In this document: in pieces, positions 1-5,964 of the stretch | How the letters are laid out: every line of letters starts with the position of its first letter | Numbering within the stretch: position 1 is the first letter of the stretch | The notes under the pieces: generated by a model | Database searches by the model: none | The model's input: only the letters and a program-made list of their open reading frames with translations | Told to the model about the DNA's origin: nothing | Program-made: the position numbers and the translations under genes | IMG/VR virus record: IMGVR_UViG_2660238548_000023 | Source: a virus | Taxonomy: Duplodnaviria; Heunggongvirae; Uroviricota; Caudoviricetes | DNA length: 10,865 bases | Direction: 5' to 3' (one strand)

Positions 1-39
1 ATGCGTATAGGACAAAATCGTTTTTTGGGGGCTATACAC

Positions 40-1254
40 ATGTTGCTTTCAGACCTTGCTATCCGTCGCGCGAAGCCAAAAGAGAAAGCCTATACACTCA
101 ATGACGGCAACGGGCTTTCGTTACTCATTGAGCCGAACGGTTCGAAGGGCTGGCGATTGCGATACAGGTTTGCAGGCAAGCCCAAAATGTTGTCGCTGGG
201 TGTTTATCCTGAGGTGTCCCTTTCTGATGCCAGGACGGCAAGGGATGAAGCCAAAAGGCTTATCGCTGGTGGAGTTAATCCGAGTGAGGTCAGAAAGGCC
301 CAAAAGCGAGAACAGGCGAACAAATGCGGTAACACCTTTGAGGCGATCGCCCGTGAGTGGTATGAAAAACGCCTGGACAGATGGTCACAATCATATGCCG
401 CAGAGATGATTGATACGTTTGAGAAGGACGTATTCCCGTATATCGGCAGCAAACCGATAGCAGAAATAAAACCGATGGAATTGCTCGCGGTTCTCTCTCG
501 TCTTAATGACCGTGGCGCAACTGAAAAATTGCGTAAGGTTCGACAGCGATGTGGCGAAGTGTTCCGGTACGCAATAATTACCGGACGCGCTGAATATAAC
601 CCCGCTCCTGATCTGGCAAGCGCATTTGCACCACACAAGAAAGAGCATTACGCGTATCTGAAAGTTGATGAGCTACCGGAGTTTTTCCGCGTTTTTAATA
701 CGTACACCGGAAGCCAGATCGTCAAGCTGGGTATGCGATTGTTGATTCTTACAGGACTCCGCCCAGGTGAATTACGGCAGGCAGAGTGGCAGGAGATTGA
801 TTTTGATAATCGTCTGTGGGAAGTGCCGAAAGAACGAATGAAAATGCGCCGTCCTCATTGCGTGCCACTTTCAGAACAGGCGATCGCTATTCTGGAACAG
901 TTAAAACACATGACGGGGCAGTATCCGTTTATTTTCCCTGGTCGAATACAGCACAGTAAGCCGATGAGTGAAATGGCTATGAACGTGCTTATTCGTCGTA
1001 TTGGCTATGCAGGGCGCGTTACTGGTCATGGGTTCCGGCATACCATGAGTACGATTTTGCATGAGCAGGGTTATAACTCCGCGTGGATAGAAACGCAGCT
1101 GGCGCACGTCGATAAAAACTCGATCCGTGGCACATACAATCACGCGCAATACCTGGACGGACGGCAGGAGATGCTCCAGTGGTACGCCGACTATATGGAC
1201 TCACTGGAACAGGGCGGGAATGTGGTACATGGCAAGTTTGGAAAATGTGGATGA
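40..1254 (+). CDS. int: P4/CP4-type tyrosine integrase (site-specific recombinase)
   Basis: ORF open from 1 to 1254. From the internal Met at 40 the N-terminus (MLLSDLAIRRAKPKEKAYTLNDGNGLSLLIEPNGSKGWRLRYRF) matches the P4-like integrase N-terminal pattern, and the C-terminal half has the catalytic-region pattern HGFRHT...LAHVD...Y. A G-run at 26-30 could serve as RBS. The start could instead be the ATG at 1. Confidence 0.88.
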   Translation: MLLSDLAIRRAKPKEKAYTLNDGNGLSLLIEPNGSKGWRLRYRFAGKPKMLSLGVYPEVSLSDARTARDEAKRLIAGGVNPSEVRKAQKREQANKCGNTFEAIAREWYEKRLDRWSQSYAAEMIDTFEKDVFPYIGSKPIAEIKPMELLAVLSRLNDRGATEKLRKVRQRCGEVFRYAIITGRAEYNPAPDLASAFAPHKKEHYAYLKVDELPEFFRVFNTYTGSQIVKLGMRLLILTGLRPGELRQAEWQEIDFDNRLWEVPKERMKMRRPHCVPLSEQAIAILEQLKHMTGQYPFIFPGRIQHSKPMSEMAMNVLIRRIGYAGRVTGHGFRHTMSTILHEQGYNSAWIETQLAHVDKNSIRGTYNHAQYLDGRQEMLQWYADYMDSLEQGGNVVHGKFGKCG

Positions 1255-1352: not shown

Positions 1353-2057
1353 ATGCCAATTGTGGAAAACATTCCTGACTTATCCCACTGGCGAACAGTA
1401 CAGGAGTTTTCTATCACCCAAGCCGCTTTATTGTTGGCCGGAATTGATCCTTATGATTACCCTACTCTTGAACATGCCAGAGATTATAAACATGAACGTT
1501 GGAAAATGGCATGGGGGTTGGCTAATGGAATGGTTACTGCAATTCGTCGTGGTGTATTAACTCCTGTGTGGATTGAATATTATCCTTTGTGGGAAGTACA
1601 AAGAGCATCCGGCACCCCCCGTACAGAGATACCAGATCGTTTGAAGAAAATATCCATGGACGAAACAATTATTACCCGTCATTCTTTACTTGAATGGGTA
1701 AGAAATGAGAGGGTCGATTATGTAAGACCTCCTCGCTCTATATCGGATAAGGAGATTAAGCCATCTAACCAATCAGTAATAATTGATGCTGAATCGCGCG
1801 TGATTAATTCTGAAGAAACAGTATTGCTGACTTATGGTCATAAGAGCGAAGGTCTTGAATATGTAGAAGACGCAATAAGAGAACTTTGGGCAACATATGA
1901 TCCAGATAATCAACAAACAGCCCCTACAAGAAATGATGTTGTTGAATACCTGAAAGGCAGGGGAGCGGGGCAGAACATGGCCGAGGCTGTAAACCTGATA
2001 CTACGCCCCACTGGCTTGCAGCAAGTTGGAAGAAGGAAAAGAAAAACAAATAGTTAA
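1353..2057 (+). CDS. hypothetical protein; AT-rich orphan cargo gene between int and alpA
   Basis: Long ORF (track 1338-2057, TTG start). Preferred start is ATG 1353, preceded by RBS aagggggag at 1341-1349. The region is visibly more AT-rich than the flanking genes. No recognisable domain; basic C-terminal tail GRRKRKTNS. Confidence 0.6.
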   Translation: MPIVENIPDLSHWRTVQEFSITQAALLLAGIDPYDYPTLEHARDYKHERWKMAWGLANGMVTAIRRGVLTPVWIEYYPLWEVQRASGTPRTEIPDRLKKISMDETIITRHSLLEWVRNERVDYVRPPRSISDKEIKPSNQSVIIDAESRVINSEETVLLTYGHKSEGLEYVEDAIRELWATYDPDNQQTAPTRNDVVEYLKGRGAGQNMAEAVNLILRPTGLQQVGRRKRKTNS

Positions 2058-2249
2058 ATAGTGCCCACCCTTCGTAAAAAAGGTGGCACTATTTGCTCAA
2101 AACTCTTTTGTTTATGGCGAGAAATCATAGTTAAGCGTGCGTTTTCTTTGCTTATTGATACTGGAATGGTGGCAGCATTATTAAAATAATAGTGGGCACT
2201 ATTCCATTGAAATAGTACCCACCATTAAAAATAGTACCCACCTATAAAT
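2057..2249. promoter_or_regulatory. operator-like repeat array and putative alpA promoter
   Basis: About six copies of a 13-bp motif AATAGT(G/A)CCCACC in both orientations: 2057-2069, 2082-2094 (inverted), 2168-2182 (degenerate), 2211-2223 and 2230-2243, plus a 16-bp palindrome aatagtgggcactatt at 2188-2203. The -10-like tataaat at 2243-2249 overlaps the last copy, upstream of alpA. Confidence 0.4.
2060..2098 (+). terminator. putative intrinsic terminator after the orphan gene
   Basis: Inverted repeat agtgcccacc (2060-2069) / ggtggcact (2082-2090) gives a roughly 9-bp stem with one bulged C and an 11-nt loop, followed by the T-rich atttgctc. The two arms are inverted copies of the AATAGTRCCCACC motif. 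Confidence 0.35.
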
Positions 2250-2304: not shown

Positions 2305-2502
2305 ATGTCAAATAACTTACTTCGTCTTTCTGATGTTATGCGCCGTACTGGTTACGGTCGCGCTTGGATTTATCGCCTGATCAGCCTGGGGCGCTTCCCT
2401 AAACCTGTAAAAATTGGTTCCCGCTCCGTGGCTTTTATTGAAAGTGAAGTCGACGAATGGATTAACCAGCGTATTGATGCTTCTCGCAACAACGCCGCGT
2501 AA
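2305..2502 (+). CDS. alpA: AlpA-family transcriptional regulator / excisionase-like protein
   Basis: Small ORF with the AlpA-like pattern LLRLSDVMRRTGYGRAWIYRLISLGRFPKPVKIGSRSVAFIESEVDEWI. ATG at 2305 has RBS gagga at 2294-2298; the ORF track starts at TTG 2299. Confidence 0.85.
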   Translation: MSNNLLRLSDVMRRTGYGRAWIYRLISLGRFPKPVKIGSRSVAFIESEVDEWINQRIDASRNNAA

Positions 2503-2568: not shown

Positions 2569-3288
2569 ATGAAACGTCCGAATATGCCCGTACAGGGGCA
2601 GGGCTTCATTCAGCCTGAAATCAGCCAGAACGATATATTGATTCGCCACAAAGCAGAGTCGCGTATTGATTCCCGCGTTATTTCTGAGCGAGCAGGAATA
2701 CAACACGAAAGTATCATTGCGACGATTAAATCTCATCAATCCAGATTGCGCGAGCTTGGCTCACTGCCTCGCCAGTCAGTCAAGGAATTAACCTATTTGA
2801 AATCGGGAAAATCTGGCCGCAAGCGCGGTCGTCCTGAAATTAGTTATTTGCTGAATGAGCTACAGCTTGACTATCTGTTACGCGTTATCCGTGGGCGTGA
2901 CGCAGAACGTATCAACCAGTTCAAGCTGGATGTTACGAAGGCATTCGCGAAGCATCGCGCCGCTGAACCAGTCCGTCGCGAATATCTGCCAGGCTATCAC
3001 GAAAGCCGTGACGGGCTTAAAGCACTGGGCGCAGAACGTCACCATTACATCAACCTTGCCCGCACTGAAAATCGCTTCGCTGGGCTGGCTGTAGGCGAGC
3101 GTCAGAGCGCGGGAGAGCAACAGTTAGGCTTACTGATAGTCATGCAGAAAATCGAGCAGGCAGCATTTAACGAGGCGATACAGAACGGCATGACACCGAC
3201 CGAAGCGGTGCGGGAAGTTGCTCGCCGCATGGAGACGTTCGCCAGCCTGATGACGTCAGCGCCGTCTCTGGGGGTGAATCATGCGTAA
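2569..3288 (+). CDS. Rha-family phage regulatory protein (putative)
   Basis: 239-aa ORF; RBS aggag at 2558-2562, 6 nt before ATG 2569. The N-terminal region (ILIRHKAESRIDSRVISERAGIQHESIIATIKSH) resembles the Rha domain. Its stop overlaps the next start (ATG 3281, TAA 3286-3288). Confidence 0.6.
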   Translation: MKRPNMPVQGQGFIQPEISQNDILIRHKAESRIDSRVISERAGIQHESIIATIKSHQSRLRELGSLPRQSVKELTYLKSGKSGRKRGRPEISYLLNELQLDYLLRVIRGRDAERINQFKLDVTKAFAKHRAAEPVRREYLPGYHESRDGLKALGAERHHYINLARTENRFAGLAVGERQSAGEQQLGLLIVMQKIEQAAFNEAIQNGMTPTEAVREVARRMETFASLMTSAPSLGVNHA

Positions 3289-4804
3289 TTATGATTTCGC
3301 CGCAATTATTCCGGTATCACCTGGCATTATTGGCAGATATGAAACGGGCGTTGTCAGCGCACGCGCACTGCATAAAGCGCTCGGTGTAGGCCGTGATTTC
3401 ACCACCTGGATTAAAGGGCGTATTGAGGAATACGGATTTAAAAAAGGTGTGGATTTTGAGGCTGTAGAAAATTTGTACTTTGATTCCCAGAAACGGGGGA
3501 GCCAAAGTGTAAATATTGAACAGTTTGATTCTGGCTGGCACGTCGCCTGGGAGAACGTGAACATGCCTGACATCCGCAACGCTGCCGCCCTGTACATCGA
3601 TACTGCGGATAAGTTCGCACAGGTGAGCATCAACCATGCTGATTACATGCGCCATATCGTGAGCCATTTCGCCGCTGAGCGCATGAAACACGTTAAGCAT
3701 TATCAGAAGGAGGCTTTATCAAATTATCGCGCTGGTGGCCCTGTACGGCGTGAATATCCGCATGATGCAGGAATGGCAGGCAAAACAAAGGCGACCACGA
3801 AAGGGTCGCCAGTGGAGATAAAGGAAATCAAGCGCATCACCAACTATGCCATGAGTGTAGCTGGTGGACAAGGCTATCAGCCAGGCGGTCGGTTTTTAGT
3901 GGCTTTTAACCGCCGTGGGTATTTCTCGACAAAAGCCTCAAGGGCAAATCGTGTTGGCCTGGTGAGTGGCAGTGGATTAAGTAACAACCTCCTTTGCCGT
4001 TGTGCTTTTTCGCGCTGTCGCTCAAGTATGGATAATGCGATTTCCTGTAGTTCTTCATTTGTCATTGTCTGTACCCGTAAAGCGGTGCGCTGTAGTACCT
4101 CATATCACAGCGCAGGTATTTTTTATGGTTGTAATTTGCGTGATGATTCAGGTTGCTTTGCGACACACTGCATAAACATAAATAACGTGATGTTATTATG
4201 TGCTTTCAAAGAAAACGCAGGTATTTTTCGCACAAACTTTTCTCGCAACACATCCGACCACTTAAGCAAAAAAGCGGCATATACTGAAGCTATCCCTTAT
4301 AAAACGGGGATCGGGCGTAGGAACCCGTTTAACTGTAAGGCGATAAATGACGCCAGAAGCGTCTTTTTTTCTGCCAGCGCTTTACGCCATATCAATGGCG
4401 TTGTGTATTGTGCGTACTCGTGCACCATCCAGTCATTTCACGAGTTGCATTTTGCACAGCGCCACCAGCAAACAATGGTGATGCTGGCGGGGCTACCGAA
4501 AGGTAGGCCGGAGTCCTTACAGTCCGGTATTCCTACCCCCGCCAGTGTCACCGCCCATTGTGAGCGTAGGAACTCCTGCGGTGACGTTATTCATCACTGT
4601 AAGGAGGCTGCCAACATGGCTACTACCCCTACCCTCGTACATTCTCAGACTGCCTTTATCTGGCGCTTTATCATCTTTGGCGCGTCAGAATCCCAAATCA
4701 TCCACGTAACCGCCTGGACGGAACGCGAAGCGCGTAACCGTTGCCCGTCAGGTTGCGTTGCTGTATTCGCCGCCCGTATCCGTCAGGAGGCATCACATGG
4801 ATAA
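3281..4804 (+). CDS. AntA-domain antirepressor-like protein; 3' extent uncertain
   Basis: N-terminus (VVSARALHKALGVGRDFTTWIKGRIEEYGFKKGVDF) matches the AntA antirepressor N-domain pattern. The frame has no stop until 4804, but after about codon 230 (near 3960) the translation is Cys/Ser-rich and non-protein-like, and it runs through a hairpin plus T7 terminator (4349-4370), the structured leader and the in-frame Icd-like ORF. The true C-terminus is probably well upstream of 4804. Confidence 0.4.
   Translation: MRNYDFAAIIPVSPGIIGRYETGVVSARALHKALGVGRDFTTWIKGRIEEYGFKKGVDFEAVENLYFDSQKRGSQSVNIEQFDSGWHVAWENVNMPDIRNAAALYIDTADKFAQVSINHADYMRHIVSHFAAERMKHVKHYQKEALSNYRAGGPVRREYPHDAGMAGKTKATTKGSPVEIKEIKRITNYAMSVAGGQGYQPGGRFLVAFNRRGYFSTKASRANRVGLVSGSGLSNNLLCRCAFSRCRSSMDNAISCSSSFVIVCTRKAVRCSTSYHSAGIFYGCNLRDDSGCFATHCININNVMLLCAFKENAGIFRTNFSRNTSDHLSKKAAYTEAIPYKTGIGRRNPFNCKAINDARSVFFSASALRHINGVVYCAYSCTIQSFHELHFAQRHQQTMVMLAGLPKGRPESLQSGIPTPASVTAHCERRNSCGDVIHHCKEAANMATTPTLVHSQTAFIWRFIIFGASESQIIHVTAWTEREARNRCPSGCVAVFAARIRQEASHG
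4349..4370 (+). terminator. intrinsic terminator-like hairpin plus T7
   Basis: gacgc (4349-4353), loop cagaa, gcgtc (4359-4363), then ttttttt (4364-4370). It lies about 10 nt after the upstream copy of actgtaagg (4332-4340). Confidence 0.4.
4501..4592 (+). ncRNA. candidate c4/CI-type antisense immunity RNA (structured leader upstream of icd-like ORF)
   Basis: Hairpin 1: ggtagg (4502-4507) pairs with cctacc (4532-4537), inner stem ccgg/ccgg (4508-4511 / 4524-4527), 12-nt loop agtccttacagt. Loop bases 4514-4523 (tccttacagt) are exactly complementary to 4596-4605 (actgtaagga), which overlaps the SD of the Icd-like ORF; 9 of them also match 4332-4340. Hairpin 2: gtcaccgc (4547-4554) pairs with gcggtgac (4578-4585). 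Confidence 0.35.
4616..4804 (+). CDS. host cell division inhibitor Icd-like small protein (putative)
   Basis: 62-aa ORF (MATTPTLVHSQTAFIWRFIIFGASESQIIHVTAWTEREARNRCPSGCVAVFAARIRQEASHG). Strong SD aaggagg at 4601-4607, 8 nt before ATG 4616. Position directly after a c4-like structured leader matches the P1 c4-icd arrangement. It is in frame with the upstream long ORF. Confidence 0.4.
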   Translation: MATTPTLVHSQTAFIWRFIIFGASESQIIHVTAWTEREARNRCPSGCVAVFAARIRQEASHG

Positions 4805-5225
4805 AAACATGTTGATCGCCTCTTCTTTCGGGCTGTATGATGCCGAAGTCGCCCACATGGCGACCGGGTTTAGCAGCCTGAATCAGATAGCGGACAGCCG
4901 CTTACATTCCGATATGCGGTTTTTTTGTGTCCGTAAGCCTACCCATACCCGCATTATGGCGGGGCGTAACGGGGGAGCCTTTGCGCTCGCTGGTTCCTAT
5001 CTGGCCAGTCTGCTAACCCCGTTACGTCTCGCCACCATGTTTAGCAGCGTAGTAGCGAGACTCCTTAATCAACAGATAGGAGCCTTTCACATGGCTGTAT
5101 CCGCACGCACATCTGATTTTTGTCGCCCGTATCCGTCAGGAGGTGACTCATGCTTAAAACCTTCCGCGTCTTTTCCCGTGCTGTTAACAAGCGCGGCCAT
5201 ACCATCGGCATCACACAGAACGTGA
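4797..5225 (+). CDS. hypothetical ORF overlapping the second structured-leader copy
   Basis: ATG 4797 lies 6 nt after the first 20-bp RBS module cgcccgtatccgtcaggagg (4771-4790) and overlaps the icd-like stop (TAA 4802-4804). The translation is Ala/Ser/Leu-rich and low-complexity, and its 3' half covers a second divergent copy of the leader, so it may not encode a real protein. Confidence 0.3.
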   Translation: MDKNMLIASSFGLYDAEVAHMATGFSSLNQIADSRLHSDMRFFCVRKPTHTRIMAGRNGGAFALAGSYLASLLTPLRLATMFSSVVARLLNQQIGAFHMAVSARTSDFCRPYPSGGDSCLKPSASFPVLLTSAAIPSASHRT

Positions 5226-5841: not shown

Positions 5842-5964
5842 ATGGCATCAAAAAATACTGGCTTAACTGCCAGTAGCAAAACTCACCCCGAATTTATGTG
5901 CGGGGATATTTACCGCAATGAATACGGTAGCCACATGACGATGATCAGCAGAGGTAAGAAATGA
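5842..5964 (+). CDS. putative 40-aa micro-ORF translationally coupled to the primase
   Basis: Manually found ATG 5842 with RBS caggag at 5826-5831; the TGA stop (5962-5964) overlaps the primase ATG (5961) as ATGA. Below the ORF-track length cutoff. Confidence 0.25.
   Translation: MASKNTGLTASSKTHPEFMCGDIYRNEYGSHMTMISRGKK

Follow-up and report, generated by a model that had tools for sequence, protein, structure and literature searches.

A gene that lies between int and alpA in a P4-related satellite is exchanged together with repeats at the alpA promoter and may encode a regulator acting on them

What holds alpA in check in satellites of Gram-negative bacteria, and what does the gene between the integrase gene and alpA do? 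AlpA is the activator of the cycles of Gram-negative phage-inducible chromosomal islands (PICIs); whether these islands have a global repressor is unclear, and alpA is induced by an unidentified helper factor (PMC6092414). Work on PICMIs, the phage-inducible chromosomal minimalist islands of Vibrio, likewise asks how the helper activates the early regulon and what the int-alpA gene does (PMC10803314). Both questions are raised by a 10,865-nt stretch of viral DNA (IMG/VR record IMGVR_UViG_2660238548_000023; hereafter the window), in which a gene for a 234-aa protein, here called X, lies between int and alpA. A reading of the letters alone (the sequence-only reading) had described X as an AT-rich orphan and candidate accessory cargo, possibly with an anti-phage function, and alternatively as a regulator of a 13-bp motif found around it. 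From our comparative analyses, we conclude that X, its repeats and the alpA promoter are exchanged as one cassette, and we propose that X may regulate alpA. In the literature that we searched, there was no paper on the X family or on a regulator between int and alpA.

Repeats at the alpA promoter and what they follow

The X-alpA spacer contains five copies of a motif of ~13–16 bp, AATAGTRCCCACC, of which two form a hairpin at the stop codon of X and three cover the alpA promoter (O1–O5 in Table 1). Four matches to AATAGTRCCCACC were found in the window against 0.47 expected, a number reached in one of 200 shuffles. In the window the motif is confined to this spacer, and the same holds in L001 (loci are denoted by L numbers), a near-identical 28-kb Escherichia coli locus, where its count was reached in none of 100 shuffles. 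The sequence-only reading had reported two inverted copies of a 13-bp motif after the gene and their recurrence at the alpA promoter, which is correct. It had also called the inverted pair a terminator, which stands in part: O1 and O2 (2057–2093) form a stable hairpin (−17.4 kcal/mol, z = −4.7) with a 12-nt loop, but it has no U-tract and was not called by a terminator scan of the + strand. The hairpin is possibly a weak terminator or insulator. An equivalent hairpin is followed by a T-run in several relatives (L007, L059 and L035). A search of 2058–2304 against Rfam at E ≤ 1 gave no RNA family.

The repeats overlap the −35/−10 spacer of the predicted alpA promoter, their cores lying 19–23 bp apart and reaching over the −35 and up to the −10. 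The sole promoter-like call near alpA in the window, TTGAAA-17-AATAGT at 2207–2235, falls inside them. The last repeat (CCYAYC) is fused to TATWWT in 14 of 40 unique loci, which come from five genera (Escherichia, Enterobacter, Serratia, Erwinia and Gilliamella), and this hexamer lies a constant 63–65 nt ahead of the alpA ATG; for the window, our distance script returned 57 nt from the hexamer to the TTG start of the open reading frame (ORF) at 2299, which equals 63 on the scale where the relatives give 63–65. Spacers of the L003 type have a second, inverted copy 22 bp upstream over a TACACA −35-like hexamer, and this pair brackets −35 and −10.

The sites are degenerate, and repeats were detected by direct inspection and with a regular expression for the core. 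A related motif is present in several copies in every X-alpA spacer, usually as an inverted pair at the X stop codon and two to three copies near alpA. In 38 unique loci (~350 kb), the strict core GGTRGGYRC has a density of 3.47 per kb within X-alpA spacers and of 0.059 per kb outside them, an enrichment of ~58-fold.

Gene context was compared in 13 genome loci, 42 IMG/VR loci and annotated E. coli records. Of 59 loci with an X-family gene, 57 have an AlpA-type gene 150–260 bp downstream of it and on its strand, and this synteny ranges across several bacterial orders, from Escherichia to Pseudomonas and Methylophilaceae. The integrase gene is usually directly upstream of X, with exceptions: in a P. 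aeruginosa island (L062) X comes first after the host flank, has no adjacent int and is still followed by AlpA, and in Gilliamella other genes separate int from X. Distant metagenomic relatives (e.g. L067) have a small HTH_17 gene after X. The constant partner of X is alpA, not int.

Natural exchanges between related elements reveal what the repeats follow. The protein X consists of an N-terminal (N) and a C-terminal (C) domain joined by a variable linker, and the protein encoded between int and alpA is referred to here as the slot protein. L060 and L059 occupy the same tRNA-Gly site, and their Int and AlpA proteins are 98% and 97% identical. The slot holds an X allele in L060 and a gene for a 265-aa coiled-coil protein with a C-like end in L059; the repeats are AATRGT-N4-RCYATT and ACCCTKAGGGT, respectively, and DNA homology ends 30 bp after int and returns 21 bp before alpA. 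Between the window and L058, Int and AlpA are 98% and 92% identical; L058 has neither X nor a repeat array, and 536 bp of unrelated sequence replace 1280–2322, with 96% identity in the flanks. In L002 the primase is 98% identical, int, the slot protein and alpA are different, and the X-type repeats are absent. L032 encodes an unrelated N-terminal part of 220 aa ahead of a C domain that is 66% identical to that of the window, and TAGTGCCCAC sites are kept. RGTGGGTAC repeats are also kept with proteins of 76–80 aa that have no N domain (C-only proteins; allele in 97 E. coli genomes). In L007, where the C domain is only 41% identical (N domain 68%, AlpA 69%, Int 63%), the sites are altered to AACCTAGCyaCTGTT. 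From Escherichia to Pseudomonas and Spongiibacteraceae, where AlpA has only 35–43% identity, the core motif is retained, always together with the C domain of X. We therefore conclude that the repeats travel with the slot protein, specifically its C domain, and not with AlpA, Int or the primase. Gene, repeats and promoter are exchanged as one cassette.

Two other assignments of the repeats were rejected. They are not iterons of the primase: TGTTCACC iterons lie elsewhere, after the primase gene (7798–8018), the 98% identical primase of L002 is found without X-type repeats, and elements with other replication proteins retain the motif. Neither are they arm sites of Int or sites of a recombination directionality factor at the attachment (att) site, as there are no copies near tRNA-Gly/attL or elsewhere in the 28 kb of L001, and Int proteins that are 98% identical pair with different repeats.

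In related E. coli elements, the int-alpA slot may be empty or may encode an X variant, the C-only protein, a coiled-coil protein that has a C-like domain, or an unrelated protein of 216 aa. The variable int-proximal slot of the sequence-only reading thus exists, but the exchanged unit is gene, repeats and promoter rather than a cargo gene. EcCIMP1, the closest experimentally studied E. coli PICI, is without X, and its int-alpA gap is like the X-less spacer of L058. A small 'UvrB-like' ORF in this gap, EcCIMP1_002, was considered as a C-domain-only relative and rejected, since the six-frame translation of the gap gave no match to the X hidden Markov model (HMM). Homology of X to three other kinds of slot protein was rejected as well: the 216-aa slot protein of L002/L071 (BLASTP negative; hhalign probability at most 49%, over 21 N-terminal columns), a fis-type family of 266–302 aa (hhalign negative, 0.4%) and CP4-57 YfjH (comparison negative). 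No X relatives were present in 80 fis-type loci.

Other features of the slot and spacer were observed in passing. The X-less L058 (4255–4797) and L061 (EcCIMP1) share a conserved non-coding int-alpA spacer of 430–540 bp, unrelated to X, with several hairpins, an example being ACCACAACATG...CATGTTGTGGT with a T-run behind it; its product could be a small RNA or that of the mini-ORF EcCIMP1_002. Elements of the fis and yicC types with other slot proteins (L071, L110, L141, L143 and L108) have TGGAAwTTCCA-like palindromes upstream of alpA (GGAAAATCC, GGAATTCC, GGAAGTTCC and TGGAATGC), and L002 has AATAGAwT repeats there. These sites are present whatever the slot-protein family, and may belong to a different operator system or be AlpA sites. 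One integrase-overlapping slot protein of fis-type islands (L115/L125, 2395–3267; L108/L122) matches Pfam DUF6387 (E = 6.5e-28); apart from this match in one unrelated fis-type slot protein, Pfam gave nothing for the other slot proteins. In L003, L004, L005, L022, L024, L028 and L032, the ~45-nt leader before the alpA ATG is highly conserved (ATCTCGTAAACCGCAATAGACGTTACGAGGTAAATATG); its CTCGTAA can pair with TTACGAG, which would sequester the Shine-Dalgarno sequence and suggests translational control of alpA. The window has a variant leader at 2270–2304, with a TAGACG direct repeat and without the left arm.

Gene X and its protein family

Gene X starts with the ATG at 1353, 5 nt downstream of a GGGGGAG Shine-Dalgarno sequence. 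It begins 98 bp after int and ends 247 bp before alpA, all on the same strand, and RefSeq gives the same coordinates in L001 for a 'hypothetical protein' (WP_001123241.1). The low GC content stated in the sequence-only reading was confirmed (X 0.423; int 0.498; alpA 0.475; whole window 0.493), and at third codon positions it is 0.328 in X and 0.517 in int. The absence of a recognisable domain was also borne out by Pfam, PHROGs and NCBIfam, none of which gave a match to the protein. PADLOC gave a sole, insignificant match to Csx20 (E = 0.037, 12.4 bits). X is not of the AlpA/HTH_17 type (PF05930, PF12728), which comprises small proteins of ~60–75 aa with a single winged helix-turn-helix (wHTH), has no match to HTH_3/XRE in Pfam, and lacks the MerR-family architecture of a wHTH detected by MerR HMMs, a long coiled-coil helix and an effector domain.

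X is, however, not the orphan that the sequence-only reading had taken it for. A word-indexed search gave 57 clusters at 90% identity, all 'hypothetical', from Enterobacterales, Pseudomonas and Azotobacter, and an exhaustive HMMER profile search at E ≤ 1e-3 gave 1171 representatives at 50% identity. The family members, including distant ones, have no Pfam domain. No relatives were found in 50,697 phage records (P4 included), and effectively none on plasmids. The allele of the window occurs at ≥80% coverage in only ~18 of 5426 E. coli genomes.

The C domain (~65 aa, residues 161–225) is conserved in the alignment as HKSEGL...W.TYDP.D..TAPT...V..YL...GA..N.A.A...ILRP, followed by a basic tail. 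When 204 family proteins were compared with the profile, 95 matched both its parts, N and C, and 86 the C part only; the C domain therefore defines the family. It also stands alone, in the proteins of 76–80 aa, or behind unrelated N-terminal parts that end in a coiled coil. The slot proteins of L059 (5383–6180) and L032 (1365–2267) have a leucine-zipper-like coiled coil directly before the C or C-like domain. The RefSeq label 'bZIP transcription factor' on the L059 protein is based on a sub-threshold coiled-coil match, and its resemblance to the C domain is visual only (hhalign 9%).

The X variants of E. coli are ~97% identical in residues 1–72 where the remainder diverges. At the DNA level, ~100 E. 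coli genomes are ~96% identical over 1255–1567, which comprises the 3' end of int, the int-X spacer and ~72 codons at the start of X; the rest of X diverges among them, with 49% amino acid identity in the middle and 72% in the C domain. This pattern indicates a recombination breakpoint inside gene X, by which the N domain's start is linked to int, and the C domain to operators and alpA.

In the AlphaFold2 model, the N domain is confident, with a predicted local distance difference test score (pLDDT) of 88.6 when modelled alone, the linker is disordered and the C domain forms three helices. A Foldseek search of the PDB with this model gave no match, and sequence searches of solved structures with full-length and C-domain profiles gave none better than E = 0.1. 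A profile-profile comparison of X with AlpA was negative, and we found no enzymatic, catalytic, toxin-like or membrane features. The winged-helix DNA-binding domains of MerR, excisionase (HTH_17) and TerS proteins are among the known systems nearest to X. The predicted folds of X are plausibly DNA-binding, and its membership in any known family is not supported.

Regulator, excision cofactor or cargo

Placed together, these results suggest a role for X at the alpA promoter. X would be produced while the island is quiescent, by expression with int or from a promoter of its own, and an oligomer of X would bind the five repeats (core GGTGGGYAC, extended AATRGT-N4-RCYATT), two at its own stop codon and three over the −35, spacer and −10 of the alpA promoter. 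Binding would hold alpA off, and hence excision and replication, until a helper-phage signal removes or overrides X. Our reasons for favouring repression are that the −10 is abutted and the −35 covered by the sites, and that the hairpin separates X from alpA. The variable middle region and the mosaicism of alleles would fit an interface under selection. We infer binding, repression rather than activation, and relief by the helper, and we put the chances that X is an operator-binding regulator of the alpA promoter, probably a repressor, at about even. Somewhat better founded is the more general proposal that X is a DNA-binding regulator acting on the repeats in either direction. The suggestion of the sequence-only reading that X could bind these sites is thus favoured by the comparative evidence, as the repeats follow the slot protein.

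Several points weigh against the proposed mechanism. The assignment of X as a DNA-binding protein is weak, and the direction of regulation is read from site positions only. In the C-domain-only elements, two repeats, as judged by eye from the spacer sequence, apparently lie upstream of the likely promoter. The loci are not phylogenetically independent, and the enrichment figures (~58-fold for the core) count sequences and so overstate the number of independent observations. L016 has a C domain that is 72% identical, yet a variant core; identity of the C domain is thus an imperfect predictor of the motif, as expected if few residues set specificity. The window also contains a P4-like C4/isrK RNA immunity module, and a protein repressor is therefore not strictly needed for quiescence. 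Finally, iolg, the gene in the same slot of Vibrio PICMI115 (from another family, as far as one can tell), is needed for excision (PMC10803314), and a simple repressor would give the opposite phenotype.

The last point leads to the strongest rival explanation, in which X binds the repeats and acts positively, as a helper-sensing (co-)activator of the alpA promoter or as an architectural excision cofactor with Int and AlpA, as proposed for IOLG. The int-alpA gene of PICMI115 is expressed constitutively together with int, and excision, packaging and transfer all require it (PMC10803314). X sits in the corresponding position, contiguous with int, and in E. coli the first 72 codons of X and the int 3' end are inherited as one block. 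The alpA promoter of the window reads as a good −10 with a poor −35, as is typical of promoters that depend on an activator, the N domain is similar to activators of the MerR type and to excisionases, and the repeats upstream of the likely promoter in C-domain-only loci fit as well. Profile comparisons of X with two other slot families were nevertheless negative or marginal, with hhalign probabilities of 0.4% and 49%, the latter over only 21 columns, and there was no X relative in the 80 fis-type loci. The repeats do not lie at att, none being near tRNA-Gly/attL in L001, and their fusion to the −10 and overlap with the −35 are easier to reconcile with occlusion than with activation. A constitutive activator would also leave alpA permanently on unless a further signal is needed. 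We consider a positive role rather unlikely.

That another factor binds the repeats (AlpA in autoregulation, the arm domain of Int, a helper activator or a host factor) and X is an unrelated passenger appears improbable to us. AlpA activates its own promoter in EcCICFT073 and EcCIMP1, and AlpA sites must therefore exist upstream of alpA; excisionase-type proteins typically bind repeat arrays, fis-type elements share a TGGAAwTTCCA-like palindrome before alpA across slot-protein families, and the weak DNA-binding assignment of X would agree with this explanation. However, near-identical AlpA proteins (97% between L060 and L059, 92% between the window and L058) and Int proteins (98%) occur with different repeats or none, the primase has its own iterons elsewhere, and the core persists, always with the X C domain, where AlpA is only 35–43% identical and the helpers must be different ones. 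Defence genes are known from hotspots of satellites, of which UP2 in PICMI is an example, and X as an anti-phage or host-fitness gene in a hotspot by int would agree with its lower GC content, the differing slot content among related E. coli elements and the presence of its allele in only ~18 of 5426 E. coli genomes. Against this, the protein gave no Pfam, PHROG or NCBIfam match and no significant PADLOC match, is devoid of catalytic and membrane features and has the look of a helical/wHTH protein of two domains. Its coupling to alpA (57 of 59 loci) and to cognate repeats across bacterial orders is unlike cargo, the exchanged unit includes operators and promoter, and relatives are absent from the 50,697 phage genomes. 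The cargo role put forward by the sequence-only reading is accordingly not supported, and we regard it as very improbable.

The satellite element and its relation to known systems

The window is the left part of a satellite-type island (Table 1). As in Gram-negative PICIs and P4-like satellites of about 10–20 kb, int, alpA and the primase gene are co-oriented, structural phage genes are absent and the island is tRNA-adjacent; int forms its left end, and in the annotation of L001 tRNA-Gly lies directly upstream. No sid, psu or delta genes of P4 were found in the window or in the L001 annotation. Directly after the primase gene, an AT-rich stretch (7798–8018; GC 0.34) contains 11 copies of TGTTCACC/GGTGAACA in both orientations, and this iteron array is very likely the replication origin. 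We take TGTTCACC to be the type-I iteron of P4. With these iterons and the int-alpA-primase layout of Gram-negative PICIs (PMC6092414, PMC10111431), the element is a P4-related replicon.

Table 1. Coordinates of features in the window
Feature	Position	Strand	Basis or remark
int, tyrosine integrase (P4-type; arm-binding, central and catalytic domains)	1..1254	+	Pfam PF13356, PF22022, PF00589
Exchangeable cassette: X, repeats, promoter and first alpA codons	1280..2322	+	blastn breakpoints
Gene X, 234-aa protein of uncharacterised family, proposed operator-binding regulator of alpA promoter	1353..2057	+	
X N-terminal domain, residues 1–125, alpha/beta, with ~50-residue MerR/excisionase-like winged-helix core	1353..1727	+	
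X variable linker, residues 126–160, predicted disordered, weakly conserved	1728..1832	+	pLDDT <50 at residues 134–163; alignment
X C-terminal domain, residues 161–234, three helices and basic tail (GRRKRK)	1833..2054	+	
Candidate operator O1, AATAGTGCCCACC	2057–2069	+	overlaps X stop codon by 1 nt
Candidate operator O2, inverted copy GGTGGCACTATT, 12 nt	2082–2093	inverted	one C missing
Candidate operator O3, 16-bp palindrome AATAGTGGGCACTATT	2188–2203	.	includes (−) AATAGTRCCCACC match 2191–2203
Candidate operator O4, AATAGTACCCACC	2211–2223	+	overlaps −35/spacer region of candidate alpA promoter
Candidate operator O5, AATAGTACCCACC	2230–2242	+	directly abuts −10-like hexamer
−10-like hexamer TATAAA of candidate alpA promoter	2244..2249	+	61 nt before alpA ATG (2244 to 2305)
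alpA, AlpA/HTH_17 regulator; presumed cassette target, first gene of rightward operon	2305..2502	+	Pfam PF05930, E = 2.5e-20
Rha-like gene	2569–3288	+	
D5/P4-alpha-type primase-helicase	5961–7784	+	
SSB, ProQ/FinO and PerC paralogues	8276–10865	+	

Rfam identified two isrK and two C4 antisense RNA units at 4279–5039. They form tandem modules, with isrK at 4292–4369 and 4848–4926 (the second below the gathering score) and C4 at 4471–4558 and 4952–5039 (70–73 bits), and are accompanied by c4-a1b1 target sites, as in RNA immunity of the P4/P1 type. The overlying 507-aa ORF (3281–4804) is therefore largely an artefact; its first ~80 codons alone look AntA-like. Three PerC-family paralogues lie in a row at 9169–9471, 10394–10696 and 10698–10865, the last being cut by the window end, and flank a 128-aa ORF on the opposite strand (9926–10309, −) to which we assigned no function. 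A PerC-like protein of EcCIMP1 has been reported as an LEE1 repressor (PMC11773190).

The open question of alpA control thus gets a handle in one widespread set of elements, in the form of a defined family (1171 representatives, no Pfam model) and candidate operators on the alpA promoter. The natural allele swaps predict which X-type protein should recognise which repeats, and the residues of helix 3 of the C domain are those at the QNMAEAVNLILRP positions. Should it be confirmed that the C domain reads DNA, it would represent a small DNA-binding module of a new kind, whose specificities are easily swapped. It is more apt to regard the int-alpA slot as a regulatory cassette than as a hotspot for cargo, which bears on satellite annotation and on the mining of defence genes, and the DUF6387 match puts a name to at least one family of the iolg type whose function is described as unknown. 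More tentatively, and in our view doubtful as a whole, the C domain may represent a new class of DNA-binding module and X the missing master repressor in a sizeable share of the AlpA-type satellites and islands of Gammaproteobacteria and Betaproteobacteria, with alleles travelling with operators and promoter as an 'immunity cassette' and with helpers inactivating X via its variable middle region, as inducers of Staphylococcus aureus pathogenicity islands (SaPIs) do with Stl.

The element resembles P4 in its alpha-type primase with TGTTCACC repeats, its C4/isrK RNAs and a rightward operon that begins with an AlpA/Vis homologue, but P4 has no X relative. The late promoter of P4 is controlled by Delta/Ogr and Vis, and is not known to be controlled by an X-like protein. 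The four-zone scheme of Gram-negative PICIs places only Int and AlpA/HTH_17 in the integration zone (PMC10111431).

The IOLG and ICG proteins of Vibrio PICMIs resemble X in being encoded between int and alpA, on the same strand, in their size of ~200–300 aa and in their unknown function; their genes, iolg and icg, comprise 13 sequence families (PMC10803314). With its 98-bp gap after int, X falls by position under the definition of icg as a contiguous gene on the int strand between int and alpA (PMC10803314), and L002 of E. coli has a true int-overlapping gene in the slot, with a 4-nt ATGA overlap. The IOLG of PICMI115 differs in being experimentally required for excision and proposed as part of the excision complex, with no operator or regulatory role described (PMC10803314).

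Stl/Rpr of SaPIs and Gram-positive PICIs would be the closest functional analogue of X, although none of its defining features that we examined was found in X. No relationship of sequence or fold appeared in Pfam, PDB sequence or Foldseek searches; Stl/Rpr is divergent from the genes under its control, whereas X points in the same direction as alpA with a hairpin between the two, and X would control the activator gene alpA rather than the whole operon directly, with repression again our inference. The likeness lies in the proposed role, that of a satellite-encoded, SOS-independent DNA-binding protein next to int that silences activation genes via operators (PMC6092414), in relief by a helper-phage factor, which we propose for X, and in mosaic variable regions among otherwise similar islands.

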